64,000 nucleotides of DNA from contig NC_092672.1 in the NCBI RefSeq assembly GCF_964355755.1, forward strand, positions 15,748,001 through 15,812,000. The letters are read 5' to 3'. The translations under genes and the position numbers were made by a program. The first letter of the stretch is position 1. Each line of letters opens with the position of its first letter. The stretch is from Antedon mediterranea. Its lineage: Eukaryota; Animalia; Echinodermata. Shown one piece after another: positions 8,513 through 45,322 of this stretch. The notes beneath the pieces were generated by a model that was not told the DNA's origin, did no database searches, and worked only from the letters and a program-made list of their open reading frames with translations.

Positions 8513-9799
8513 TTACATTATAGTTTTTCTTTCACCTATTTCTAAGTATATTGATTCTCTATCAAGATCTGAAGGTAGGCCTACTTGAGTACCTATTGAT
8601 CTCTTCCATACACCAGCAATTTGTGCTGAAGTCCTGTCCATTGTAGAGATGCTGTCTTTTGGCATAAAGTAAACATCAGGTTGAGGGACACGTACCCCTG
8701 GTAGATACCGTCTTGAATGAGCAACAAATATACATAATAAAACAGCCATAATACAAGCAAGCAGTAACAAACAGGATCCAACAAAAGATAATATCTTGGT
8801 TGATGACATTTTTCCAGAGTTTTGTTCCTGACCTGTATCAATTGTACTTGAGATTGGATCTGGATTATTTGAAGGGGGTAGGTATAGTATTTTTGACATA
8901 GTGGAACTACCAATATCATTAGTTGCTTGGCAATTCATAATCGTTCCATTCTGACTTGGATATAATTGGTTTAATCTTAGTGTCTGATCACCAGTTTCTA
9001 TTTGGTATTGACTTTCACTTATATTTGGTGTAAATATCCACTTGTAATAAATTACCTTCGGATTAGCTTTTACAGAACATATGTACACACTTCCTTGTTT
9101 AACCATGATTTCACCATTTAACTCAATCAGTGGTTTGTAAACAACATTCAGTGGACCAACAGTGCAATTTCGTTCAATTTTTGCAGCTTTTAGATTACAA
9201 ATGTATATCTTACCATTGAATTCAGGAGTAAGTTTAAGTTGATGGGTTAGCAAAATCTTATTATTTTTTTTGTTTAGCAATGATTCAAGTTCTGTTCCAT
9301 TTGTAATCCATCTCAATGTTTGTTTTTGAACTCCAATTTCTGATTCGCATGATAAACGTAACATTTCACCACTTCTATATTTTGTTTGTCTATTCTGACA
9401 ATCTGGGTTTGGTATTTCAATTACTGTGATTTTAACATCTTTTGAAATTGTAATCTTCTCACCATTTTTGTAAATCCCACAAGAATATTTAGATGTTTTG
9501 TCAGTTCTTTTAGCTGGATCAATAATGAGAAAATAATGACCATTATCTTTATCAACATCAATCTCGTAGCGACTTGATTGTTGTAAGATGTTCTTTCCTT
9601 CGCTAATCTTTACCGAGTCTTTAAACCATGATACAATTTCATCATTCTCTAAGTCTTGAACTATACATATGATCTGAATTTTACTTCCCTCTGCAACTGT
9701 AACATCTGTTGGAAAATTTGAGATGATTCCTGCAAAATTGCTTTGAAAACACCATAAGAAAATAAAATACAACAAACTAGCTTCAGATAACTGGGTCAT
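8513..9799 (-). CDS. Single-exon type I membrane protein with three Ig-like domains (KIRREL/nectin/CADM-like architecture)
   Basis: Open 428-aa frame from MTQLSEASLLYFIFLWCF (signal peptide). Three C..W..C Ig patterns (IICIV/VSWFKD/YSCGI; LSCES/LRWIT/YICNL; YICSVKANP/YKWIF/NCQATNDIG), TM ILSFVGSCLLLLACIMAVLLCIFVA, and a tail containing SIYLEI. An upstream ATG at 9826 is possible. Confidence 0.88.
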   Translation of the reverse strand: MTQLSEASLLYFIFLWCFQSNFAGIISNFPTDVTVAEGSKIQIICIVQDLENDEIVSWFKDSVKISEGKNILQQSSRYEIDVDKDNGHYFLIIDPAKRTDKTSKYSCGIYKNGEKITISKDVKITVIEIPNPDCQNRQTKYRSGEMLRLSCESEIGVQKQTLRWITNGTELESLLNKKNNKILLTHQLKLTPEFNGKIYICNLKAAKIERNCTVGPLNVVYKPLIELNGEIMVKQGSVYICSVKANPKVIYYKWIFTPNISESQYQIETGDQTLRLNQLYPSQNGTIMNCQATNDIGSSTMSKILYLPPSNNPDPISSTIDTGQEQNSGKMSSTKILSFVGSCLLLLACIMAVLLCIFVAHSRRYLPGVRVPQPDVYFMPKDSISTMDRTSAQIAGVWKRSIGTQVGLPSDLDRESIYLEIGERKTIM

Positions 9800-11581
9800 T
9801 TTTATATAATAAAAAATATAATACATTTGACAACTGTTCTGACTCTTTGAAAAGTAGTTTTAAAACTAGCATATGTGCCAAGTTCTACTGTCAATGAAGT
9901 TTTTACATTGAAACTAGGTAGTTTTATGTATGGTCATTTAATGCTTTAATAACACTACTGTATACCATAGTTGAGGCCAGTCAATTCTATAAATTTGTTT
10001 ATGGTTTCTGAACTAAGTATCATGTAACAGTATTAAATTGCAGTGTTGATGATACATTGACTGTTTGAGATATACATGAGTAGTAATAGAGAGCTGTGTA
10101 GATGGTGTTTATGACATCATTTAGTGGTCGGAACTAGCCAATTAGTTTCTGTTCAAATTTACGAATCATAAATTAACTTATATGTCCAACATTCATTATA
10201 AAATTAGTTTAGATTTTCCATTTTCATTTTTGAGTGACACAGATACAAGATACAGTCTTTTGCTTTCTTCTCTCTGTCACAGAAATTCACTCAGTTGGAT
10301 TTACATGTTGTGGCATTAATTATTAAGAAATTAATTATTCAAACAAGTTGAAGTGAAATTTCTGATGCAAAAATATATATTTAACTTTACCTAATACCAA
10401 TCCAATATTGGTCGGTGCAGTATTTTTAAAGCTCTAGAAACAGTATATTGGCCTACCCGTAATATTTTTTAAAATGTTGTCACCTCAGGTGGTAGTAAGC
10501 CTATTTGTATTTCAATTTTATCCTGACTGGAAGACATTTTAAGATGTGCCATTTTCTCAAGAACCTAGTCTATATTCCAAAAATATTCTCATCTGTCTTA
10601 ACCATGGTCAGGCTGAGGCGGCAAGATATATGATTTAATTTGATTAAATAGGTTAATGGTTTAGTCAATTTGTTTGCTGCAATAAAAAGTTATTAATTAA
10701 GTTAGTTATTAATATTGTATATTTTTTATTTTGGCCTATTAATTTATAGTTCATTTACATTGTTTCATGTATGTCTGTTAGTGAAATATTATGCTAGATT
10801 TTCAAATTTTCATTTTCATGTTAATGCTCATAAAGCCTAATTCCGTCAACCGCTTCTATTGCACACTGTAAAAAGCTTATTAGACTGATTCCGGCCCTAA
10901 GGAATATACTCTAATTGATGTTGCTTGACGAAGTTGATCTCAAGATAATTAATGGACAAAATACAGAATTAATAAAGAAATATTCTTACAAAATCAATAA
11001 GGTTTATTGCATGATAATGCATGTAACCTGAATGTGAGGAAATTATTTATGAGAAACTTTGGAATATTTTAGAATGGCCACTTCTTTATTGCTTAAAAGC
11101 ATTATTGTAATAAATAATACAAGGAGATAGCAAAATATATTTTTGTAGAGGACAAAGGTTAATTTAATGATTTTCTTTTTTTTTTGCATAATTGTTATTC
11201 TATTCTATATTATCTTTTACGAATTTTAATGTAAAACATTATGGTACACATGCTGTTTCCTTATGTACGAGCTGGAATCAATGTCTATGTAAACACATCA
11301 ATATCGCATGTTTAACTCCAAAAATGTATGGTGCATATCTGGTTGACTAGTTTAGTTGGTGGAATTTTTTACGTTATGTCCCACTATCAACCCTGAACTG
11401 CCTGCTTTTCAACATTTTTTTATAAAAAAAAAAGTTTCTTAGTATAGTATTTTAATTTTAATTTATTTTCATGTAACAATATCTGTACGTATGTCGTGCA
11501 ATGATATAAGTGAATTCCCGGGCTTTATCAGTGAAAACATGTAACTGATCTGAAGAGAAAACCACTGCTGAAGAAGTGTAG

Positions 11582-27954: not shown

Positions 27955-29030
27955 GGGTGTCACGAAACCTAAGACCACGAAAGCTAAGACCCCCTAAGAC
28001 CTAAGATCACGAAAGCTAAGACTCAAGACCTAAGATTACAAATATTTATCTTTCGCACCTGCCTTGTATTTTAACTCCCAACATTTATTCTGAATACCAC
28101 ACCTTAGAATTGGCACTTTCATGAAAAAGAATCACATAAAAAGTAACAAATACATTTTTAAGTTGATGATTTTACAGACGTTTTTCTCGTACACAAAATG
28201 ACTAGCCTACAGACAGTATAGTACACTAGTAGGCCTACCCGGCATGTTCAATGTTTTTGTTTCTATGGAACGTCAAAAGAGCAAAAATTATATAGAGGGC
28301 TGAAAACTCTGTGGAGTCCATCTACATAAACAATGTAAAATTAAAATTGTAATGATAATAGTATAATCATGCAAGTACAAAGAAATAAATACTGGCAAAT
28401 AAATTTTAACTTAAAAATCAATCAAGTTTTTTTGTTTCGTTTTCTTTCTGTTTTTATACTTGTACTATTATTGTTGCTCTTTTGGCGCGCCATAGAAACA
28501 AAAACATTGAGCGGGGAGCTCGAGGAGTTACATTACAGTATACAAAGAAACACGCCTGTAAAATCATCAATTTAAAGGATTTATTTATTTGTTATTATGT
28601 GTTTCTCCTTCTAAAAGTACTTATAAGTCCTAATTTTAAAGTGTGGTATTCAGGATAAAGTTAGTCAACAAATTTGGAGTCAAAATACAAGAAAGGCAGG
28701 TGCGTAAGAAAAACATCCTCTGAACCAACACATTGGAGTAAATATATACCAACAAACAACCCGTCAAGTTTGTTTGTTGTAAAGAAAAAATATACATCTA
28801 CTCAACGGGCGAAAATAATGTGAGTTTATCTATGTTTTTCGGTAGTATTAAATTATATTTATGGTAATAAATGAAACCTACTGTGTTTAAAATTATGTAT
28901 GGATAAACAAGTATTGTTTTTAAGCTGTAGTATATCTTAGAATTTGTAATATTAGGTCTTGGGTCTTAGCTTTTGTGATCTTAGGTCTTAGGGGGTCTTA
29001 GCTTTCGTGGTCTTAGGTTTCGTGACACCC
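27955..29030. mobile_element. Foldback/MULE-like non-autonomous DNA transposon, copy 2 (inverted relative to copy 1), 10-bp TSD
   Basis: Same TIRs as 20337-21424; TSD CTTCCCAGTA at 27945-27954 and 29031-29040. Confidence 0.88.
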
Positions 29031-29559
29031 CTTCCCAGTATAGTCCTTCTTCTCTACTTGCTCTCAAGCCATGATCATCTCGCTCCCTGTCTGCTCTCCT
29101 CCATCAGCTCTTTCCCAACTCCACCCTTTTTTGCTCTTCAGAGAATTAGCCTATCATGTGACCATTATCCTGGCCAATCAGCTTTCACATATACCATAAA
29201 TTTGTTACCCTATTGTCAAGAATTTCATTTTTTCTGCTTTGCAGCAGATTTTCTGAAATTCTTAAATTGACTATAAATATAAACCTAACAACCTTTTTAA
29301 AATGAAACTTGACACATATGATTCATGTCAAGAGTCATCTCCGTACACACGCTTTGAAAGTTAAAAATACTCAAAATCAATTTCTAATCAAATGAGAGCA
29401 CAGGACATTTTAAGCATTTTACATTTTACACAAATGTGCGCGTTGCACACACACTTAATGCGCACAGCTTGTTTGCGGCTTAGAAAAAAACGTTTTTGCG
29501 CTTGATATTTTATTCTTTGTACCTTTTATGTTACTAAATGGCTGGATATGGTAATCTTG

Positions 29560-30440
29560 CACATAAAATTAAACAATTAAATGAGACTTACCTGCAAGTT
29601 GAAGTTTGGTTGTGGTTCTACACTGCCCTCCAGTTGATAGTAGGAATTTGGTGTATTGCACACCTGCTCTATAAGCATGTGACGTAGCTACAGAACGTAT
29701 ACTATGAGATTTAAATATACCTGTGTCAATTCCAGATTTTTGACATCATATCTTTTATTCACTTTATTCCTCTATGAGGCCATGTTACTGATGTTACCAA
29801 TTGTGCAAACTATAATCTGTGATAGAGCACTCCTTGCGGTGTTAACCGCACTATAGCCTAGTCCAAATGAAGCATAGTAAGAAATTCTAAAACTGATTCT
29901 ATAGGAGGTTTAACAGGTTTGACTGAAGGAGTAAGTTGGTAGTCCCCTGAAAAATGTTTCTCTGTCAGCACATTTCCCTGATAACCTTACCGCTATCAAT
30001 ATAATCTTCTCTTGTCGTACGTTAGTAACAAGTTCATCCTCGGTATGATAATAGGGTTGTCTATCAGTAGATCCATCAATGTTGTAAAGCAAGGTTGGTT
30101 TGGGCCTTCAATTTGGGGAAAGGGGGCAATTATATTTTTGAATTGGGTATTAATTTTTTGTCTGTTGTCCACCAGCTTAATTCCTTCCTCAAATTGTTTG
30201 TGATACACATCATAGCATCAAAGTTGCCCGTGTTTCTTTTTAATGCAAAGTCCTTAGCAAATTCTAAATTCCTGTAATGCAAAGGCCCCATATTTACTGC
30301 CGGGAAGCTTTCCACAACACTTCCGATGACTTTTGCTACCCCTCTAATGGTATCCTCTTTTTTGGTAAAAGTATCTGAGCATAAACGTTTTATGTTGTCC
30401 TCTTTTTCTTTGGGTAATGTAACCTTAATGCTTATTCTTC
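29560..30440 (-). mobile_element. Degenerate DIRS1-type tyrosine recombinase retrotransposon
   Basis: RT-thumb region VTLPKEK...VAKVIG...FPAVNMGPLHYRNLE...ELSWW; MT-like QPCFTTLMDLLIDNPIIIP; YR remnants LGYSAVNTARSALS and GIDTGIFKSHSIRSVATS. Confidence 0.75.
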
Positions 30441-30756
30441 TTAGTGTAGTCTTCTGCAATAAGCAAAAACTACTCGTTAACACATGCACGATCACATCTT
30501 ATGGAATTACCACATCAACCCAGAGGGCAGTGTAGAATTCATGATAATGGCACCTCTAATTCGCCAGAAATGACACTCTATATCGGGCTATACGCTATCA
30601 AACACCTGACTAACAATAGAATAACATTTTTTGCGTTCGATGTGAAGGTCAGAGGAAGTCGAAATCCCCGACAAAGGCACTTCCGGTAAGCTAATACATT
30701 CTGCCAATTATAATCAATTAATACAAATTAATTATTATTATCAATTAATAATTTTA

Positions 30757-30870
30757 AAAAGTTGAAGGTGCTGCTATAAATATATTGGGCAAAAAAAGTT
30801 GAAACTGCTGCTATAAATATATTGGGCAAAAAAAGTTGAAACTGCTGCTATAAATATATTGAGCAAAACG
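30757..30870. repeat. 37-bp tandem repeat (3 copies) inside a dispersed repeat that recurs at about 49841-50007
   Basis: CTGCTATAAATATATTG at 30771, 30808 and 30845. Confidence 0.8.
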
Positions 30871-30877
30871 CTGAATT

Positions 30878-31090
30878 GTCGTGAGGTGGTTTCCCGAAAG
30901 ATCGTAAAATCAAAACGGTACTGGGTATGACCAACTAGCGTTATTGTCACCGGCTAGTCATCCATTCATAGAAGTACTAATGTAGTAGCCTACCTGTACG
31001 GTGACCATAGAATGTGACCCGAGGCATGACTAACTACGACTTTTAGATGATAGAAAGTTGAGAAAAATTGTTACGAGTAGTTTTACGACA
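30878..31090 (-). repeat. 3' pseudo-LTR of the EN-minus PLE
   Basis: Matches 35039-35251 base for base by eye (offset 4161). Confidence 0.9.
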
Positions 31091-31279
31091 TGAAGATGTT
31101 TATGAAATTATGTTAAAGATGTAAAAACATATTACATTGGTATATAAACAGTAATGAGTGTTAGTAAAAATAATATAATGTAAAAAAGATATAAGGAAGA
31201 AAAGCAAAGAGATTATGGAGCGGCTGTACCTGAATATACAATATAAATATTGTAAGGTTAAAAACTAGAAATTTAGGCG

Positions 31280-31350
31280 ATCTTGTCAAAGGTCAAGCAC
31301 CTTCAGCCTGCCACGTTTCGATATTCAATATTGAACTTGACCTGACGTGG
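31280..31350 (-). ncRNA. Putative permuted/pseudoknotted hammerhead ribozyme
   Basis: CCACGU-C-AGGUCAAG ... AUC-GAAA-CGUGG ... CUUGACCU-UUGACAA-GAU: stems III (6 bp), I (8 bp) and II (3 bp), with core nucleotides in register. Confidence 0.55.
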
Positions 31351-32191
31351 TTCCACAATATCTTTATATGAAAAATTTGTAGAGTGGATAGAAAATTATT
31401 AAACTGGTTATTGTTAAATTGTTTTTAAAATACGTTGTTCGTTTTAATGTTAAACAATGTTTAAATTTTCTCACCTTTTTAGAAAAAATATTATTTCAAT
31501 ATGAAGGAGATTGAAAGTTTATGTTACGTACTTGTTTCTGTGTATACAGGACGCTAAAAAATTATTAAAATTATTATGCCTAGGCCTAGGCCTAACTAGC
31601 CTAGCTTAGATAGGATTTACGTAATATGATTAAATTTTATAGTTTAACTGAATGTAATTTAAAGTAGAATTTATTTAGTTCTAAATATAATATTAATTAG
31701 TCTTACCTTGTGTACAAAGCTATTTATTTGGTTTGGATTTTACAGAAAAAATGACAATGTCGGAGCTGTAGAAAATTTAATATGTTTTTACCGACCTTTC
31801 CTTAGTGAGAATGTTATGTTTGAAAGTAACAGGTTCGAATGTTTGCTATGCGCGTGTGTTAGAACGCGTTATTGAAATTGACGCGGGTGTTTATGATTAC
31901 GCGTAAAGGTCTGTATATATTATTCTTATTATTAATTAACGTACAGGGAAAATTTTCATTTAAAAATTTTGTCAAAAGGTAAATTTATGTCAATAAAAAT
32001 GGGTGCTTATAATATATTTAATCTGGTATAAAAACATTTTATAAGTCATAAAAAATTCAAAATGAATGAATAAATATAGAGGTAAACATAATGGTACAGT
32101 ATGCACAACGATTTATTTGACAAAATAAAGGTGTTTATAATACAAGAATATTATAAAATACAACAATTTAGTATTAAAATATTATAATACG

Positions 32192-32193
<2 letters not shown>

Positions 32194-32229
<36 letters not shown>
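32194..32229 (+). repeat. A36 tract (T36 on the RT sense strand) just after the RT stop codon
   Basis: Direct reading. Confidence 0.9.
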
Positions 32230-32236
<7 letters not shown>

Positions 32237-32262
32237 TATATAAATTATACAAAACTTTTAAT

Positions 32263-34757
32263 TTAATATGTTTGATAGGTTGCCAGTTTGTTGTGCAATT
32301 GTTTATTAGTGCAGCATATTTGTTTAATCTTTCTGTCGTTATAAAAAACGTATTGTATTTTATACTTGTTTTTGAGTAGGTGTTTGTGGTTATTTATAAT
32401 ACCTTGCATAATATTTGTTTTATCTGTGGTTTTATCAAATTTGGTTTTAATACAAATTGTTTGTTTATTAATATTCTTTGTAATCTTTTCTTTGGGGTTC
32501 TGTTGAAAATGTGTCAAATGTTTATTTATGAATTTATGGCTGTAACCTATTTTCTTTAGTCGTAAAGAGAAGAGGGAGGTGATGTGTAGATATTCTTTTA
32601 TATTACATGAAAGTCGGTTATAACGATGGGACTCTGTTTTGATAATACCTTTAAAAATTGATGGGTTATGGTTGGATGTTTTATGAATGTATGTATATTT
32701 TTGGTATGGTTTTTGATATATTGAGTAGTGTATTTTGTTTGTTGTTAGTGTTGTATAGTTGATGGAAATGTGTGTGTCCAAATATATCATGTTAGTAGTA
32801 TTAAAAGTAAAGTTGAGTGGAATATTGTGTGGGTAGATGTTGGATATGGATTTAATAAGGTCAAGAGAATTAATTTTAGGGTTGCTGATAATTAGTGCGC
32901 CGTCGTCTATGAATCGGGTAAATAAGAAGTTGGAAGGGTTTAGTTGAAATCTTTGTTTTAATGTGGTGAGGAAGTTTAATTCTTTCAAAAGGAGGGTAAG
33001 ATTAGCGATTTGGGCGCTGTGGTAAGACCCCATAATGATTCCCTGTATTTGCTTATATAATAAGGTCCGGCTTTGAAGTATGCGTTTTTATTAATTATGT
33101 TGTTTAATTTTGTGAGATATAATTTGGTTTCATTGTTAACATTTAAGAGGTCGCAGGCATTTGTGATGGTGTCATTGGTATCTTGTATAGTGATGTTAGT
33201 GTAAAGGCTTTCGAAGTCCCAGGAAATAAAGAAATTTGTGTCGGAGAATTTTGTGTTAATTAATTGTGTTTTGGAAACAAATTCGTTTGAGTTTTCAATA
33301 ATGGGAAAGGGTACATTTTTGTCATAGAACATATCTTTAATTTTGTTTAAAATTAATTTAAGATGGTGGCCTAGTGTTTTGGATAGGGGGGTAGTAGTCC
33401 AGCTATGGGCTGTAATAATTGGTCGTCCTTTAAGGTCTTGTTCTGTTTCGGGTGAGGGTGGTTTTTTAAGTTTATGGGGTTTGGGTAGAATCTTGAGGGT
33501 AGGTAATTGTAATTTGGAGTTATCGATCCAGTTTATAATTTGGTTGATTTCTTTGATAAAATCGTGGTCTTTGATGTCTGTATCATTAATTAGTTTAATC
33601 ATGTCATTTCGAACTTTAAGTTTTAATTTTGTTATATAATTTCTTTCATCAATTTTAGGATCGACTTTTTGATATATTTCGTTGTTAAGTTGTCTATCAT
33701 ATTCTTGTTTGTACCATTTTGTAGTATTAAGGCATAAACCTAAATTCTTGTCTGATGTTTGTATTATTATTTCTGGGTTTTTGGCAAGTGTTTTCAATTG
33801 TTTGAGTTGTGATTTAGTTGTATTTCTTTTATCTATACATCTAAAATTTTCGATGCATTCTTGGTTTAGTTCTTCGATATTGTTGTAGCAGAAAGCAGTT
33901 GTGTTTGGTTTAATGTGAGGATGTGTAATTAATTCATGGAAAAGTGTTTTGTGTTTATTACGTATAGGCAATGAGTGTGGTTTAGTGTGAGTTGTTTTGA
34001 TTTTATGCTTGTAAATGTCATGTTTCAACATTGTTGTAAAGGAGGACTTCATATCGTTATGTAGTTCTGTTTTAATCTGCTGTCCGTTCTTGAAGGTTGT
34101 GGGTATAAACGATGGTCCCTTGTTCAATATTGTTTTGGTGTGTTTATTGATTTTAAAGTTAGTAAAATTGTGGAAGTTCAAATCATCTTTCTTGTTTTCG
34201 TTTCTAATTTCGTCTTCCTTCTTTTTAGCATCATAGTTTTTCATAAGTTTTTTAATTAGTATTGTGTGCAAAACACTTCTCTGTTGACATAAATTATTTG
34301 CATAGTCAAAATCTGAGGTGGTTTTTTTAAAAACGTATTTCTTATTAATTGCATTCTTCTGTTTAATTTCTTCGATTGTATCTTTATATTTCTGTAAGAT
34401 ACTTTGTTTCAAGAGTTGTGTTTGTCGGTATCTATGTTTAATAATATCGCTCAATTCTTCCAATGTGTTAATATTGTCGCTCAATTCGGTGTCCTCAATA
34501 CTTTCCCCGGTATTTATATTAATGGTATAATTCCTGATTTGGCTGATTTTGTTGTCAACGAATTTTATTTCTACGTTATGGTTGTTGTTTATTTTGAGTA
34601 GGCTAGGTGTCAGTTGTTCTATTTTGTTATAATATCGACTACAGTTAATTATTTCTTCTCTGAAAATATTTTTAGTCGTCTTGGTAGGTATCCTATTCCA
34701 TTCGTTGATTGTTGTAATTTTCCTAATATCTTTTGGTTTAAATGTTGGATGAACCAT
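32263..34757 (-). CDS. PLE reverse transcriptase of about 830 aa, split by one frameshift near 33055
   Basis: KGPSFIPT, SDKNLGL, LPKPHK, KGRPII..HSWTTTPLSK, SWDFESLYTNI, then after the shift KQIQGIIMGSYHSAQIANL, RFIDD, IYLD, YQKPYQKYTYIHKTSNH, GIIKTESHRY. No nuclease motif follows. Confidence 0.85.
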
Positions 34758-35038
34758 ATTCTGTGGGTGTTTAAATAGTTATGTAATATTAAGCTTAAAA
34801 TAATTATTGTGTGTTGAAAAATTATATTGTGAAACATGATGTTTATGCTATGAATGTCGTACGTAGGTAAAGGAATAGAAAAAACAAGGATCTAAATGTA
34901 GAAAAATGAAAAAAGTAGTATAGAATGTAGAAATAGGAAAAGTTTGTTAATAAAAAGAATAGATTTTGAATGTGAGGAATGACTTATGACGGTTAGATCC
35001 CACTAGAGATCTATGTCGGCTCCTAGGCCTGTATAATC

Positions 35039-35251
35039 GTCGTGAGGTGGTTTCCCGAAAGATCGTAAAATCAAAACGGTACTGGGTATGACCAACTAGC
35101 GTTATTGTCACCGGCTAGTCATCCATTCATAGAAGTACTAATGTAGTAGCCTACCTGTACGGTGACCATAGAATGTGACCCGAGGCATGACTAACTACGA
35201 CTTTTAGATGATAGAAAGTTGAGAAAAATTGTTACGAGTAGTTTTACGACA
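35039..35251 (-). repeat. 5' pseudo-LTR of the EN-minus PLE
   Basis: Identical to 30878-31090. Confidence 0.9.
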
Positions 35252-35283
35252 CACACTATTTGTATGCCTAGTGTGTAAACATT

Positions 35284-35525
35284 ATTGACATAATTTCATA
35301 AAGATCTTCATGTCGTACAACTACTCGTAACATTTTTTCTCAACTTCCTATCATCTAAAGTCGTAGTTAGTCATGCCTCGGGTCACATTCTATGGTCTCC
35401 GTACCGGTAGGCTACTACATCAGTACTTCTATGAATGGATGACTAGCCGGTGACAATAACGCTAGTTGGTCATACACAGTACCGTTTTTGATTTTACGAT
35501 CATTCGGGAAACCACCTCACGACGA
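35284..35525 (+). repeat. Inverted, slightly diverged pseudo-LTR copy
   Basis: Reverse complement matches 30878 to about 31115 with several substitutions (e.g. CGGAGACC vs CGGTGACC). Confidence 0.85.
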
Positions 35526-35809
35526 CGTATATATATTTTAATGTCATTGATGCATCACCCATTTACATTACGATTTTATCAATGATTTTATAGGAAAAGG
35601 GGGTAAAAATCAACATTAACAATTGTTACAATTTTCAATCGTTGAAGTTGAACCGAGTTCGATCGTTAAAACTGACCAATCAAATGGTTCACAAATTACG
35701 TCATCATAGTTTGTGAAAACATACGTATGCGATGACAATTCTTGAATTTTTACATATGACTTTAAAAGAGTACAAAAAAGGTTAAAAACATCAAGTGTAA
35801 GTAAAACTA

Positions 35810-38378
35810 AACTAAATTTGAACCGTCGTCGAGTTCGGGTTATCCGCGCAAACGCAACATGCACCACATACATTATATAAACGCCGACAATTATTATGCC
35901 ATCCAATGACATGAATTAAATATGTTTACAGTGTTGAATTGTACCTATTTTGTGTCATAAAGAATAACAGTATTTACGGAATACTCTGTATATGTTATAT
36001 ACAGTGTAGCAAAGATGAAATTACGAGACCCATTTTTTAATCCATTTTTTAACTTGATGACATCAAAATGTAATATAAAGATAGAAATTTTAGAAGATAA
36101 TAATCTAAATAATTACATTAATAAAAATGTAAAGAATTTTAGACACAAAAAAGCGAGATACGCGCTATTTTAAAAGCGGTGAATTCTTACGAAAGAGATG
36201 AAAATCTGACCTTTTAATTTCAACTGGCCATATGATGACAACAGATCAGATAGACAAAATGTTAATAGGAATAATTAGCATTGATGAAATTATGTAACCC
36301 ATCTTTTAATCCAATTTTTAACATGATAACGTCATCAAAATGTAACTTAAAGATAGCAATTTTAGAAGACAATCATCTAAATAATTACATTTTAGACACG
36401 AAAAAGTGAGGTGTGCGCTATTTTAAATGCGCTGAATGTTTACGAAAGAGATGAAAATCCGACTATTTGAATTCAACTGGCCATATGACAACGTCATGAT
36501 TTATATCTACAATTCAACAGCTTCTACAATAAGTTTTAATCATACAAGTCACTTTTTATTCGGAGGAGCTATAACAGATTGAAATATACTGTATAGACGA
36601 AATTACTTTATGATGACGGAATAAAAATTGAAATTTTCGTAACTGATGTGAAAGAGAATTGATTGAGAAAGAACATATTATAATCTAGAAGAAAATGGGA
36701 AACGCATTAGCGTGATGCGCTCTATTAAATTGGATTTACTAGTACAAAAGTGAAAAAAATCATGTTTTAAAAATTTGAGTGGCCATATGGTGACGTCAAA
36801 ACATTCGATTTTAGAAATTTTACATGAATTGATATCTACAACTCATCAGCTTCTATAATACATAAATGGGGGTAACCAGCCACCCTGAGGAGCATAACTG
36901 ATTACAAATAGGTATATTTTTGCACAAATTTGCATTTAATTACCTATTCTTTCGCACACGATTTCTAAAGTTTAACGTGCACATGCTTAGTTATTTTGCA
37001 ATTAAAGTTCATCAAAATAAATGAAATCTACTATCAAAAATATGAAAAAAAAAAATCAATACGCCTTGTACAAGATGTGCGTAAAACGCCGACAATTTAG
37101 AAAATGTTGAAATGTTAAAAATGACCTGAAATGTACGCGAAATTGATTAGAAATTAATTTTGCACATTTTGAAATTTCAAATATGCTAATCGCATATTTT
37201 TTTGTGTAGCCAGCTATTTTTACTGTGTCAAAATTTGCATTATTTTATGAAATATACTTTTGTTAAGTTTCATTGAAAAATGAATTTTTGTTCAGAATAA
37301 ATGATCAAACATAAAATTTCATTAAATCGCACGAATAATAATAATAATAATAATAAGATTATACAGCGCACACAAAGTTTCTTGCACTACAGTTAGAGGT
37401 CAATCTTCTGACAAAGATAAACAATCTTATGTTAACAAGAATTAGAGATACGCTAAAAACAAAATTTGTGGAAAGAAAGAAGAACTAGACTTGAACTATA
37501 ATATGTAAAATATAGATGCGCGCTCTTTTAAATGTGATGAACTATGACGCAAAATATGAAAATACGACTTTTTTTATTGACGTCACAACATTTGATTGGC
37601 AAAATGTTCACATTAAATCTACAAACCAATAGCTTCCAGAAAACGTTTTAATAATGATTATCTCTTTTTATTCTGACAAACAGATTGAAATTTACTGTAA
37701 AGGTGAAAATAAGTGACCTACATTATTTAAATTATTATGACGTCATAAAAATTAAAATATTTAATTAATAATTATCTAATTTGACTTGTTTGTATGGCCT
37801 TATTTAAAGTGGAAATGGTCTAAATTGTTTTCAAAATTACTAGGAAAGGCTTGAAAAATATAATTCAAGAGAAAAAACGTTTTTTATACTCCGTGCGCAC
37901 CTTATGCATAAATAATTTCGCGCGAGTAGGAATTTTTGACATGCGCAAAATGTCATCAAACGTGTAAAAAGTTGATTAGAAATTAATTTTGCGCATTTTG
38001 AAATTTTGAATGCGCTTGAGCGCGCAACTTCTCGTGAAACATGCCTTTTTTAATCCATAGAAAGTTTGCCCTTGATATGACTTAAACTTTCACTAAGTAT
38101 CAATACAAAATGACTTTTGGTTTGTAAACTATGATCAATCATTTAAATTCATAAAATCGTGCGTAACTTACGCTGCGCGCCTCTATTAACGTCATATAAC
38201 AAAGTTTCTTGCACATCTACAGCTACAGGTCAATCTTATGACAAAGTATACAATCTTATGTTGACAAGGATGACAGATATGCATGCAACAACATTTGTGG
38301 AAAGAAAGAATAAGGAAGATGAAAAAAAAAAGATCCTGAAAATAACAAGGGGTTATATGCTAAGTGCAGATAACCAAC
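35810..38378 (-). mobile_element. Nested pair of Helentron-like non-autonomous elements
   Basis: Reverse-complement similarity to 60761-62306 at both ends; a second CTAG terminus at about 37485. Confidence 0.65.
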
Positions 38379-39096: not shown

Positions 39097-41798
39097 ATGT
39101 CTCATACAGAATCTGAGGTTGCACGTATGAAGTCTAAGCGTGGATACGCTAGGGGAGCTGTTACCCGAATTATGGGTACCGTGCAGAAATTGATGGCAAG
39201 AAAGGAAAACCTTTCCCAAGTCCATGAACGAATGGAGGAGGTGGGAACCTTGACGGAAGCGTTTGCAGCTGCACATGCAGACTATGTAATGTTGTTAAAG
39301 GATGAGGAGGCCAAGCAGGAAGCGGAGGTTTATCGGAGAGAATTTGTCACGAGAATAAACGACTTCTGTGATGATATCGGCACATGGATCGCCAGTGTTG
39401 AGCACTCTGAGCAACATAAGTCTGTTTCGGAAGTTGGCAGCCGCTTTCACTAATTTTAACCACATAAAGTGCCTTGGATGAAGCGAGAGCTAAGGCTAGG
39501 GCGGAGAAAGCTGCACTTGAAGCTGAAATACAAGGCTTGGTGGAGCAAAAATCTTTAGAACAAGAGCAATTCAAATTGAGACGAATAAAACAGGCGCGCC
39601 AGATGGAACTTGAAACCCAGCGTTTTCAGGCCGAGATGAAATTGGCGCTAGAAGATCATCACGCAATGATTGAGATGGGAAGACAAGAGTTGGAGCTCGA
39701 TCATCGCCGTCGAGAGATGGAATTAAGTGCTAAAATGGCAAAAGCTGATGCAGTCCAGAAGGTCTACACCGAAGTTATTGAGACTGAAACTCAACCACGT
39801 TATCATTCTACACCGGAAGATTTAGTCCTACCAACTATACACCTACCTTCATTTGATGGCCGACATCTCGATGCGTCAAGGTTTGAACGCAACCCATCTA
39901 AACCCACTGAACCGATACTCCAAACACCTAAAGCAGACGATCCTTCAGTTAGAAAAAAGTCTGATTCACCAGCACTAAATACATTGCACCAACCGGAAGA
40001 ATTGTCGAATACCATATGCCAGATGTTAGCCGATTCTCGATTACACCAGCAATCTCTTGTGGAGGCTTTACATCTAACGAAAAATGAGCTACCGATGTTT
40101 GATGGTGACCCGCTGCATTACTGGTCCTTTATTAGAGCATTTGACAATGCTATAGACAGAAAATCAACGGACGATGGAGCAAAGCTTATATCCCTGTTGC
40201 AGTTTTGTACCGGAAAGGCCAAAACCTTACTACAGTGCTGTCTAATGAAGGAACCAGCTGAAGGTTATCGTCTGGCAAAAAAATTGTTAAAGGAAAGATT
40301 TGGCAATAACGACAACATAGCACAAGCCTGGATCGACAAAATAACAAAAAGAAAGAACGTTAGAGACGAACTTGACCTACAAGATTTCGCGGATGACATA
40401 AGATGTTGTCAGGAAACGTTAGAATCAATGGGATATTTAAGTGAGCTTGAAAACCGTAGAAGTCTTTGTAAGATAGCTGAGAAGTTACCAAATTATTTAA
40501 AAACACGTTGGCTAAAGAAAAATTATGATATTAAAACTAAGATGAAACAAGCTCCAAATTTAGATGACATGGTAAAATTTATCACTGCTGCTGCTGAGGA
40601 AGCAAATGATCCGATCTTTGGCAAGTTGGTTCGCAAGGATCGACGTGATAAACAGAAGCAGAATACAAGCTATAGTGCGCAGTCCATACATATTCCTTCA
40701 TCAAAAAAGCCTGAGGTACCACCTGTAAACCCACCTAAAGAAGATGAACACTGTGTATACTGTGGACATAATCACTATGTTACGTTCTGCAAATCATTCA
40801 AAGCTCTGCGGGTTAAAGACAGGCTAGCATTTGTTCAGTCGAAGCGGTTATGCGTTAATTGTTTTAAACCTGGGCACATAGGAAAGGAGTGTTTGCGTCA
40901 AATTACTTGCGACATAGATGACTGTGGTAAGAAACACAGCAAATATTTGCATATTCCACGTTACGTAACCAATTCTCCACCTAATCCACCTAACTCTTCA
41001 CCTCATCCACCTATCCCTACAGTGACTACAGCACCAACTACCACCGCCACTCCTCTGATGCAAGCGGCATTAGTTCAAGGAAACAGCAAGTTTATTCAAG
41101 CAAATCGTGAAAGGGTGGCGTTGCCGATTGTTGCCGTCCGTGTACGTGGCAAAGATCCGAATTCATATGTTGACACTTATGCTTTAATAGATACAGGCGG
41201 AACATCTAGTTACTGTACTGAGGAATTAGCTGACAGACTACAAGTGATAAGGCAGAAGTGTACGGCGGAGCTTACTACAATTGAACAGAAAAATATTTTG
41301 ATAAATACGGAGCTGATAAGCCTTAACCTGTCCAATTTAGAAAACACATACACTGCACGTATGCCACAAATAATAGTGAGACCCTCTCTCAACCTAGGCC
41401 TAGATAATCTAGCATGCCATGAAGACTTGATAAAGTGGCCTCATCTTGCCGATATACAGTTACCACCAATTCTGGACGTAGCAGAAGTTCAGCTTCTCAT
41501 TGGCCAAGATATGCCAGAACTATTGTGTCCACAAGAAGTGCGTAAAGGCAAGCCTGGCAAACCGTATGGAGTATGGACAGCTCTGGGCTGGGCAATAAAT
41601 GGCCCAATCAATAAAGATGTTAATCAGCCTCGATCAAGTCACCATGTGCAACTTAAAGCAACCTATGAACAGTCTGGTAGCTGTTGGAAGCTGAATACAA
41701 GTAATCCCAGCGCCGAAACTACCTTATCCATCAATGATCACAGGGTATTGCACATATGGGAAGACTCCATTAGTCTAAAGATGGCCACTATTCCATGA
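39097..41798 (+). pseudogene. BEL gag + aspartic protease (in-frame stop at 39451-39453)
   Basis: Coiled-coil N-terminus, FDGDPLHYWSF, three Cys/His knuckles (CVYC..H..C, CVNC....H....C, CDIDDC...H....H) and protease ALIDTGG. Confidence 0.9.
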
Positions 41799-42293
41799 AT
41801 ATTCCATTCTAGCACAGACCACCAAACCTACCTGATAATCGTCAGATGGTAGACCGTAGATTGTACCTGTTGGGTAAACGATTGTATGGGTCATCATTTT
41901 TCCACCATAGGAACCGCAGTGCGTCACGATCAGCGGGATTTACAACAACTTGGTGAAACATGCCTTACGGTTTGCCAGCCCAGAGCTGTCCATACTCCAT
42001 ACGGTTTGCCAGGCTTGCCTTTACGCACTTCTTGTGGACACAATAGTTCTGGCATATCTTGGCCAATGAGAAGCTGAACTTCTGCTACTTCCTGTACATA
42101 TCCGTAAAAATTATGAGACATTTAGTCAAGTTGAATTTAAACATCTTGTATAACTTCTATTGTACATAGTTTTAATATTGCTTTTACTTTTATTTTTCTT
42201 GTTTTTTTTTCCAAATCTGGACCTCTTGGGAGACCAGTACTTGTGTATTGAAAGAGCTATTCCAGAATAAAGAAAGATTTGTATTGTATAGTT

Positions 42294-45200
42294 CTGAAGA
42301 AAAAATACGTAACTGAAATTCATAAACTACTTGCTGATCGACACGCAGAACTTGTTCCAGAAGAAGACCTCTGCAGAGCTGACGGTTGTGTATGGTACCT
42401 CCCCATCACCCGGTGTTTAACCCCAAGAAGCCGGACAAATGCCGAATTGTCTTTGATTGTGCTGCTAGGGCAAATGGCACCTCGTTAAATGATCAGGTAC
42501 ACCAAGGACCAGATTTGACCAATAAACTAATCGGCGTCCTCCTTCGTTTCCGACTGTTGCGTTTACAGCCGATATCCAAGGCATGTTTCACCAAGTTGTT
42601 GTAAATCCCGCTGATCGTGACGCACTGCGGTTCCTATGGTGGAAAAATGATGACCCATACAACGTGCCTTTAGAGTATAGAATGACTGTTCATTTATTTG
42701 GAGGAGTTTGGAGCCCAAGTTGCGCCAATTATGCTGTTCATCGGACTGTCGAGGATAACGCAAGTGAATACAGCAATGCTGCAAGGCAGACAATTAAACG
42801 TAACTTTTACGTAGACGATTGCTTAAAGTCTGTAGCGTCTGTTGACGAAGCCATATATCTCATGAAGTTAAAAGACTATTGCAGTGTGGAGGGTTTCACC
42901 TCAACAAGTGGATGTCGAATAGCCGGGAGGTTATCTATTCTCTACCTCAAGATGAGTGGGCCACAGGATTAAAGAACATTAGTTTCGACAGCTTACCATG
43001 TGAGCGAGTCCTTGGAATGCTTTGGAATATTGAGCAAGACAAGTTCCAATACGATATTCAAGTTGCTGTTAAACCTATGACACGTCGCGGAGTGCTAAGT
43101 ATACTCAACTCTGTGTACGATCCACTTGGTTATGCAGGACCCTATGTACTGCGAGGAAAGATGATATTTCAGCAACTATGCCACTGCAAATACGACTGGG
43201 ATGATCCCATACCAACTGAGAGTGCTGATCAGTGGAATCGATGGCTCATTGACCTTCCTACTATAATGGATCTGAAAGTACCACGTTATTTTAAGCCCAT
43301 TGGGCTTCGCATCAAATCCAGCCAACTACATCATTTTGTCGACGCATCCGAAGCTGGATACGGGGCAGTAACGTATCTTAGAATGATAGATTCCTACGAT
43401 AAAAGCCATTGTAGTATTTTGATGTCCAAATCGAGACTTGCACCTTTGAATACCACAACCATCCCAAGGTTGGAGTTACCGCAGCCGTCGAAGCAATCAA
43501 GTTAGACAAGTTGTTGCTGCGTGAGCTAGAAATTCCGCTGTTGGAATCCACCTTTTGGTCGGACAGCATGATCGTTTTATGGTATATTCAAAATGATGAG
43601 CGTCGCTTCCAGACTTACGTAGCAAACCGTCTTTCGGTAATCCAGGAACATAGTTTTCCGCACCAATGGCGATACATTGACACAAAGAGTAACCCTGGAG
43701 ATGATGCATCCCGAGGTTTGACTGCAAGCAAGCTGGTTAATAACCGCAGATGGGTTAGCGGACCATCATTCCTGTGGAAAAATGAAGAAAGATGGCCAAC
43801 TCAACTTAAATGCGCAGAACTCAAAGCAAGGGCGGAAATTAAAAAATCGTCAAAAATCTACACAGTTGTGACAAATAATAACGCTGCTGTCGACCAACTC
43901 TTAAAACGATACTCTTCCTGGTACCGGCTAAAGCGAGCTGTGGCATGGATTATGCGCTTCAAAACCTTTATGTTGAAACCTGCATGCCTAATTACTGGGA
44001 AACTAACGGTAAACGAGCTTAAGAAAGCAGAAGAATCCATCATCCGGTATATTCAAACAAATAGCCTGAAGCCTGAGCAGATTAATTCGCTTAAAAGGTT
44101 GAATCCTATCCTGACAGAAGACGGTCTGTGGCGTGTGGGAGGTAGATTAGAAAAGGCAAATGTATCATACCAAACCAAGCATCAAGTGTTGCTACCAGCA
44201 AATCACCATGTTACTAAGTTAATTGTCGAACATCACCACTTGAGAACGGGTCATGCTGGAGCTGAACACACTTTGGCTGAAACCAGACTAAAGTATTGGA
44301 TTGTTCGAGGTCGCCCCACCGTGAAAGGTATCTTGTCCAAATTTATAACATGCAGGAAGTTGAGAGCAAGAACAGAAACACAAATGATGGGAAATCTTCC
44401 TGAAGCCCGGGTTAAATCAAATGAAACGCCGTTCAATAGAGTAGGTATCGACTACTTTGGACTGTTTATAATAAAAAGAGCCCGTAGCGAATTGAAAAGA
44501 TACGGATGTATCTTCACTTGCCTCGCCACTCGAGCCATTCACTTAGAGGTTTCACACACTTTGGACACCGACTCGTTCATTAATGCCTTACAACGCTTTA
44601 TTGCACGTCGGGGCGAGCCAGCCGAAATTCGCTCAGATAACGGCAGGAACTTAGTAGGTGCTCAACTGCAATTAAAGCAAGCACTTAAAGGATGGAACCA
44701 ACATAAGATAGGTGACTTCTTGCAACAAAAGGAAATCGAGTGGATATTTAATACTCCTACTGCGTCACATATGGGTGGAGCCTGGGAGAGGCAAATTCGT
44801 ACGGTGCGTTCCGTGCTGCGTGGCGTATTGGGTCAGCAGAAACTGGATGATGAAGGATTATCAACACTGATGTGCATAGTAGAAAGCATAGTGAACAGTC
44901 GTCCCATAACTAAACTTTCCAGTGATCCAGATGATCCCTCGCCCCTTACACCTAACCACCTATTGCTTATGCATGCTGGACCATCATTACCTCCTGGCAT
45001 GTTCGTTAACCAAGACTTGTATAAGCGTTGTTGGCGTCAAATTCAGTATATGGCGGACATCTTTTGGAAACGATGGTTAAGTGAATATCTTCCTGCCCTA
45101 CAACAGCGCCAGAAATGGTTAAAACCAAGAAGAAATCTACGGCAAGGGGACCTGGTTCTAATGAAAGCAGAGAACACACCTCGTTACCAATGGCCTTTAG

Positions 45201-45322
45201 GATTGATCACCAAGATTTACCCCGGCACCGACGGACGGGTTCGTTCTGTTGAAGTTAAAACCCAAACGGGTGTATATGATAGGCCAATTGTTAAAATTTG
45301 CTTACTAGAAGGATGTATGTAA
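42294..45322 (+). pseudogene. BEL pol: RT, RNase H, integrase (frameshifted)
   Basis: [83 protein letters not shown]. Confidence 0.92.

Follow-up and report, generated by a model that had tools for sequence, protein, structure and literature searches.

A predicted hammerhead ribozyme of type-SGC strand order in the 3' tails of Penelope-like retroelements

Eckert et al. (2023; PMC10085705) divided hammerhead ribozymes into three blocks, S, G, and C, and described type-SGC, in which the blocks follow one another in the order site, GAAA, core. According to the available text of that paper, five natural examples cleave in vitro at rates of 0.007 to 0.19 per min, single constructs cleave during transcription, and activity requires a fourth helix that links stems I and II. 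The examples came from metatranscriptomes of soil, spruce, and sludge and occurred with hairpin ribozymes on the opposite strand. The same text reports that type-SGC RNA was not detected in the genomes of known organisms and that HRIMA-1 is RNA-only. Our literature search, for which most subscription papers were beyond reach, found no paper that locates type-SGC in a genome or a retroelement, and types I to III are the only ones mentioned in the accessible portion of a 2026 preprint about retrozymes of animals. The second system for comparison is the type I hammerhead of Penelope-like elements (PLEs). As described in the available part of Cervera and de la Pena (2014; PMC4209133), it is circularly permuted and lies near the 3' end of the element, it has a natural U3-A8 core variant, and its helix III is a palindrome that possibly allows dimers.

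We analyzed a 64-kb stretch of DNA from Antedon mediterranea (the window), in which an earlier note had placed a hammerhead with an unusual strand order. The minus-strand letters from 31350 to 31280 read exactly as claimed there (Table 1). Direct reading also confirmed stems I, II, and III of 8, 3, and 5 Watson-Crick pairs, a predicted cut after GUC between 31344 and 31343, and a perfect 12-nt palindrome in the first linker. Types I to III are circular permutations of core-GAAA-site; here that order is reversed, so the S-G-C order does lie outside them and is pseudoknotted. The further claim of a new hammerhead topology fell, since this order is the type-SGC published in 2023 and shown to cleave. 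Likewise, the note had held that the fold needs a pseudoknot or an intermolecular assembly. The pseudoknot stood; an obligatory intermolecular assembly was rejected because type-SGC single constructs cleave during transcription (PMC10085705, available text). The reading of UUGACAA as a core variant is supported: U3-A8 cores occur naturally in Schistosoma PLE hammerheads, and the 3-8 pair covaries between U-A and C-G among the relatives described below.

Table 1. Features of the motif and its host element in the window
Feature	Position	Strand	Basis
Whole hammerhead motif, type-SGC order	31274-31350	-	Direct reading, shuffles, four-helix scan, relatives
Block S: stem III 5' strand, GUC triplet, 8-nt stem I strand	31336-31350	-	
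Stem III 5' strand CCACG	31350-31346	-	
U16.1	31345	-	
C17	31344	-	
Stem I strand of block S, AGGUCAAG	31343-31336	-	
First linker (stem I to stem II), 13 nt	31335-31323	-	
Perfect 12-nt palindrome within first linker	31324-31335	-	
Block G: AUC, GAAA, stem III 3' strand	31311-31322	-	
Stem II strand AUC	31322-31320	-	
GAAA	31319-31316	-	
Stem III 3' strand CGUGG	31315-31311	-	
Second linker	31310-31298	-	
Block C: stem I strand, core, stem II strand	31280-31297	-	
Stem I strand of block C, CUUGACCU	31297-31290	-	
Core UUGACAA, U3-A8 replacing C3-G8	31289-31283	-	
Stem II strand GAU	31282-31280	-	
Joining helix 5' strand AGGUG ("interaction I" of type-SGC)	31302-31298	-	
Joining helix 3' strand CGCCU	31279-31275	-	
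Outer helix 5' strand, pairing with 31219-31212 (8 bp), would span cut	31352-31359	-	Predicted
Downstream box (outer-helix partner and pyrimidine tract)	31187-31243	-	Present in many ribozyme-bearing contigs
RT gene, first frame, 597 aa stop to stop: helical N-terminus, RT up to motif A	32985-34778	-	
RT gene, second frame, 274 aa: remaining RT	32263-33087	-	
3' terminal repeat of element	30874-31129	-	
5' direct copy of last 217 nt (pseudo-LTR, 99.5% identical), stops short of ribozyme	35035-35251	-	
Inverted, truncated 3'-end copy, 94% identical, beside 5' repeat	35272-35525	+	

To judge the motif against chance, we used a descriptor that covered all six strand orders and any Watson-Crick 3-8 pair, with G10.1-C11.1 obligatory. 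Across the 64-kb window it matched a single site, which is the motif itself. In 300 block-wise dinucleotide shuffles, 52 matches arose under a loose setting (4/2/3 pairs, with G-U admitted); at 5/3/4 Watson-Crick pairs or more there were none. Rfam returned no hammerhead in 28000-36000 at E values up to 10, as expected from the earlier remark that a standard motif search would miss this arrangement. The published type-SGC descriptor, as given in the available text of PMC10085705, would also skip the site because it accepts only CUGAUGA as the core and allows no more than 8 nt in the first linker. The silence of Rfam and a nested folding z-score of only -0.8 to -1.4 at the motif would suit a chance arrangement of short words, but an unremarkable nested z-score is expected for a pseudoknotted fold, and no shuffle was comparable. 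The identical wiring also recurs at the identical position in related elements, with covariation, which refutes a chance origin; we give it practically no credence.

With the published type-SGC ribozymes (PMC10085705, available text) the window motif shares the block order, a core with a 3-8 pair, GAAA, the NUH triplet, stems I to III, and a fourth helix formed by a 5' extension of the core-side strand of stem I with a 3' extension of stem II. This joining helix (31302-31298/31279-31275, 5 bp) is absent from the earlier note. In the same source the core is CUGAnGA, the first linker is about 3 nt, and stem II has about 4 to 5 bp, whereas in the PLE-borne motifs the core is UUGACAA with U3-A8 in the window and has C3-G8 in relatives, the first linker is palindromic and 13 to 16 nt long, and stem II has 1 to 3 bp. 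Stem I of 7 to 8 bp and the predicted outer helix also set them apart from the SGC alignments available there. Because its first linker is 13 nt, against about 3 nt and up to 8 nt in HRIMA-1 and the variant family, the window motif is not a member of the two published SGC sequence families. It also sits in a chromosomal retroelement tail rather than in metatranscriptomic RNA. Host element class, position near the 3' end, the U3-A8 variant, and a palindrome are shared with the type I hammerheads of PLEs as presented in the available part of PMC4209133. The window motif differs from these in being non-circularly permuted, in having its palindrome between stems I and II, and in lying just outside the portion copied into the 5' repeat. 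The strand order is known, and the genomic retroelement setting and the architecture are new as far as our searches reach.

In the host element, a frameshift where the two frames of the RT gene overlap breaks the gene. The ribozyme lies inside the unit, about 920 nt beyond the stop codon and about 150 nt short of the 3' terminal repeat, in agreement with the earlier placement in a PLE 3' region. The pseudo-LTR partial tandem with an adjacent inverted, truncated copy is the repeat layout described for PLEs in the available text of Craig et al. (2021; PMC8557442). Structural comparison of a model of RT residues 203-588 placed telomerase reverse transcriptases (TERTs) best (Z 6.5, rmsd 4.8, 229 residues aligned), ahead of R2 (Z 4.8) and LINE-1 (Z 4.2); all of these values are middling. 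Foldseek gave no match at E 0.001, a PDB sequence search none, and Pfam none in either window RT frame. The Atlas neighbors of the related protein P0003 are eukaryotic RT/HTH_animal clusters. Pfam matched GIY-YIG neither in the two frames of the window nor in 16 proteins from related loci, and the words GIY/YIG and CxC are missing from the element. The N-terminus of the RT gene product was modeled as helices, and full-length relatives terminate soon after the RT.

Athena, Coprina, and Naiad, as covered in the available text of PMC8557442, share with this element a telomerase-like RT (here a weak model match), the pseudo-LTR partial tandem, the inverted, truncated 5' copy, and the lack of a C-terminal GIY-YIG. 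Athena and Coprina are telomere attached and carry canonical hammerheads in that source, whereas the window copy is interstitial; our tree holds no named references. In Naiads the N-terminus carries a GIY-YIG, and there is also a CxC motif; the window element yielded neither, and membership in that group was rejected.

Several other features were seen at and around the element. A run of 36 U lies just past the stop codon (32194-32229, minus strand), and T-rich tracts likewise follow the gene in loci L004, L005, and L015. The terminal repeat, which has no match in the related loci, contains several long hairpins (overall z -0.74). Three 37-nt tandem units (30756-30868) abut the 3' end of the element, and no target-site duplication was seen at it. 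Elsewhere in the window are the frames of a BEL/Pao-type LTR retroelement (39468-45322; DUF1759, Peptidase_A17, rve, DUF5641), a 448-aa frame with immunoglobulin domains (8513-9859, minus strand), and nested inverted repeats resembling a MITE or foldback element (28000-29017). The first two of these would suit an animal host.

A metagenome scan yielded 79 related loci. A strict scan of these that required two stem II pairs was blind to all relatives, and relaxing stem II recovered them. Among the 79 loci, 9 carry the wiring in complete form and 3 in part; with the window included, it is present in three deep lineages. Family a comprises L002, L010, and L011, family b comprises L004, L005, L006, and L021, and family c is L009, whose motif was reached across a circular contig. 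In the four-helix scan the window scored 50 and these eight loci 47 to 65; the next best score was 38, and the best in 3.26 Mb of pair-wise shuffled sequence was 41. Searches with blastn and a covariance model added L067 (complete) and L045, L034, and L015 (partial); the covariance model did not recover L009. Every related motif lies 3' of the RT match and in sense orientation. A 7-bp helix analogous to the outer helix was found in relatives by eye.

The RTs of the relatives are 32 to 40% identical to that of the window. In a quick unrooted tree with long branches, which omits rows with fewer than 140 aligned residues (L015, L034, L045, and L067 among them), the window and the eight positive loci fall within one group of 31 rows (SH-aLRT 99). 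Two loci of this close clade, L008 and L020, extend more than 2.4 kb downstream, which is long enough or nearly so, and have no motif; most other close loci stop before the tail would be reached. Scans and the covariance model found the motif in none of the 41 rows of a distant, mostly freshwater group (L028-L079), and scans and Rfam found no hammerhead there. The RT frames of that group are 1,200 to 1,500 aa long, with no GIY-YIG match in the four scanned. It includes circular contigs of 5.5 to 6.1 kb (L043, L046, L059, L071, and L079) and a tandem (L035). Of the 79 loci, 40 were compared with Rfam, and no family reached gathering score in these; RT relatives were absent from the viral and prokaryotic genome contigs searched. 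In L037 (6520-8058), a serine recombinase gene adjoins the RT element. In L006, an upstream tail copy (651-1275, 73% identical) starts just past the ribozyme 3' end, so that this pseudo-LTR also excludes the ribozyme.

We next considered covariation. An 80-column alignment of the window, L011, L004, L021, and L067 has no gaps, and the spacing is constant: 24 nt separate the cut from GAAA, and 26 nt separate GAAA from the core. Eight of the 14 pairs in stems I and III and at position 3-8 have changed on both sides. Of 70 cells, 88.6% pair, compared with 34 to 59% for slid partners, and none of 500 shuffles reached the observed value. All eight double-sided changes come from a single contrast, the window against families a and b, and so represent one divergence rather than eight independent tests. 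The counts leave out L009 (misaligned by MAFFT), L045 and L034 (truncated), and the near-identical duplicates L002, L010, L005, and L006. The palindrome and the joining helix, offset by one column between the window and families a and b, were compared by script outside these counts. L009 meets the pairing in a third way: stem I has 7 pairs, stem III has 6, and the joining helix has 7. Family b has mismatches at two pairs in the middle of stem I.

Stem II behaves differently. It has 3 bp in the window and 1 to 2 canonical pairs in relatives, where these lack G10.1-C11.1: a single U-A pair after an inserted base in families a and b, and a C-A followed by two pairs in L009. The joining helix of relatives, which has 6 to 7 bp of differing sequence compared with 5 bp in the window, begins 2 to 3 nt past the core and would substitute for stem II. 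The earlier note had looked to covariation across related PLE copies for support and had named loss of the core nucleotides and stems as grounds for refutation. Covariation was found in stems I and III and in the 3-8 pair; stem II itself is weak in the relatives. The core letters and stems I and III are kept, while stem II is degenerate and L008 and L020 are without the motif. Taken together, the comparisons make a functional family motif, a predicted ribozyme, very likely.

Some findings weigh against a working ribozyme. The published SGC stem II has about 4 to 5 bp (PMC10085705, available text) against the short stems here, and in the window motif the 8-bp stem I joins the 3-bp stem II almost without a linker. 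In the one PLE reconstituted in vitro, that of Anolis, the available part of the report states that hammerhead mutants left insertion unaffected, that no reads began at the hammerhead cut, and that the hammerhead cleaved only upon addition of protein. With the degenerate stem II of relatives, this dispensability and need for protein would fit a conserved, knotted, hammerhead-derived RNA that no longer cuts alone and acts as a signal to which the RT binds or at which it initiates, or that cuts only with protein. We consider such a role improbable: the catalytic letters, the NUH triplet, and the 3-8 pair have been kept over three lineages while the stems turned over, which is the pattern expected from selection on catalysis.

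Contigs of sequencing runs were compared with the window over 31130-31480, and three of four runs gave matching contigs; X10 gave none. Among the 11 runs listed, none is recorded as RNA, and X8 is RNA only by guess. Contigs pile up over the motif (in run X1, summed depth, which is not copy number, reaches 36,000 compared with about 90 upstream) and a second time over the downstream box, with a spacer of variable length between them. Among the variants listed (40 of 70), three fall within 31272-31355, at 31299, 31303, and 31304. Position 31299 is U in the window and C in 96 to 99% of depth in the three runs (other base in 13,341 of 13,595, 24,550 of 25,563, and 6,658 of 6,707). The majority C converts a U-G to a C-G pair, making the joining helix fully Watson-Crick; the change at 31303 gives this helix a sixth pair, and 31304 is unpaired beside it. 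In folding calculations, the pair probability of the joining helix was 0.91 to 0.98 with the majority base and 0.13 to 0.14 in the window copy. An alternative register (31309-31306/31278-31275) is preferred in the window copy and falls to 0.01 with the majority base. The U at 31299 also permits a hairpin (31303-31299/31293-31289, probability about 0.77) that masks part of stem I, and the majority base abolishes it.

Because its gene is frameshifted and U at 31299 favors a competing hairpin, the window copy is probably a weaker allele. A stronger reading, that the family motif is a working ribozyme and the window copy largely inactive, draws on the same hairpin and frameshift and on the rarity of the U (1 to 4% of depth). 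However, the core letters and stems I to III are intact, U-G still pairs, the pseudoknotted fold is beyond the scoring of a nested model, and the copy is young, given terminal repeats that are 99.5% identical. We therefore regard large-scale inactivity as possible and somewhat doubtful.

The contigs also bear on the cut. Among 24 contig pieces listed, five lose their match at 31340-31345 while the contig continues, and four others end their match in or beside the palindrome. Summed depth, which is no copy number, drops 2- to 4-fold across the cut in three runs. These ends and the drop are a weak hint of copies that begin at the cut; the contig ends could equally be families with a different stem III. 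Many contigs match just about 160 nt (31187-31345: the 3' part of the ribozyme, the spacer, and the box) between AT-rich, unrelated flanks, and this stretch is possibly a short non-autonomous derivative.

The first linker has a self-complementary center in all eight loci examined, 6 to 7 nt after stem I and with differing sequences. The palindrome is 12 nt long in the window, 14 nt in L004 and L067, 16 nt with G-U in L011, 8 nt (or 14 with G-U) in L009, and 6 nt in L021, L045, and L034. As a hairpin it is weak (-1.2 kcal/mol in the window, including a flanking G-U pair, and 0.0 in L009) compared with the homoduplex (-13.8 and -11.8 kcal/mol, respectively). The active form might thus be a dimer with swapped strands, in which the cleavage-site strand comes from one copy and the GAAA and core strands come from the other, so that only tandem transcripts cut. 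In the text available to us, other metazoan PLE hammerheads are described as having a palindromic helix III and forming dimers, and a plain hairpin would leave its loop free. On the other hand, only two loop tetramers occur, with the same central dinucleotide, and they provide little independent evidence. The shuffle p value for a perfect palindrome is 0.001 to 0.05 in four loci and 0.25 to 0.30 in the other four. The swapped form has locally the same geometry as the hairpin, the topology demands no partner, and published SGC ribozymes with a linker of about 3 nt cleave without such a palindrome (PMC10085705, available text). We hold the dimer only tentatively; it refines and does not exclude the explanation that we prefer.

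That explanation, which we consider probable, is that the hammerhead fold in type-SGC order is a conserved part of the 3' tail in a PLE clade in which no endonuclease was found, and that it cuts the RNA of the element itself after GUC at 31344/31343. The modeled RNA would first form two hairpin domains, with stem III closing one and the joining helix closing the other. Stems I and II would then form as loop-loop pairings between these domains to build the catalytic core, and the outer helix (31352-31359/31219-31212) would bridge the cut. By analogy with proposals for the type I hammerheads of other PLEs, cutting may free unit-length RNA from tandem or read-through transcripts. The 3' product would start at the cut and, perhaps once circularized, serve as template; the pseudo-LTR layout is what copying of a tandem or circular template would leave. 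A bolder version, which we put forward as speculative, is that an undescribed clade of endonuclease-less PLEs in animals has kept, while its RTs diverged to about 35% identity, a type-SGC ribozyme that is genomic and gated by dimerization. Here the joining helix would replace most of stem II, the palindrome between stems I and II would swap the strands of two copies, and only tandem transcripts would be cut and circularized.

As far as our searches reach, type-SGC hammerheads have been described only in environmental RNA without an assigned host, and the retroelement tails give the wiring a biological setting. Descriptor searches for PLE hammerheads overlook a whole class. Short natural constructs could show how little of stem II suffices and whether the linker palindrome gates cleavage. 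Judged from its recurrence with compensating changes in distant relatives, the wiring is likely an old working part of these PLE tails, predicted to be self-cutting, and it offers a handle on the question of what hammerheads do for Penelope-like elements.
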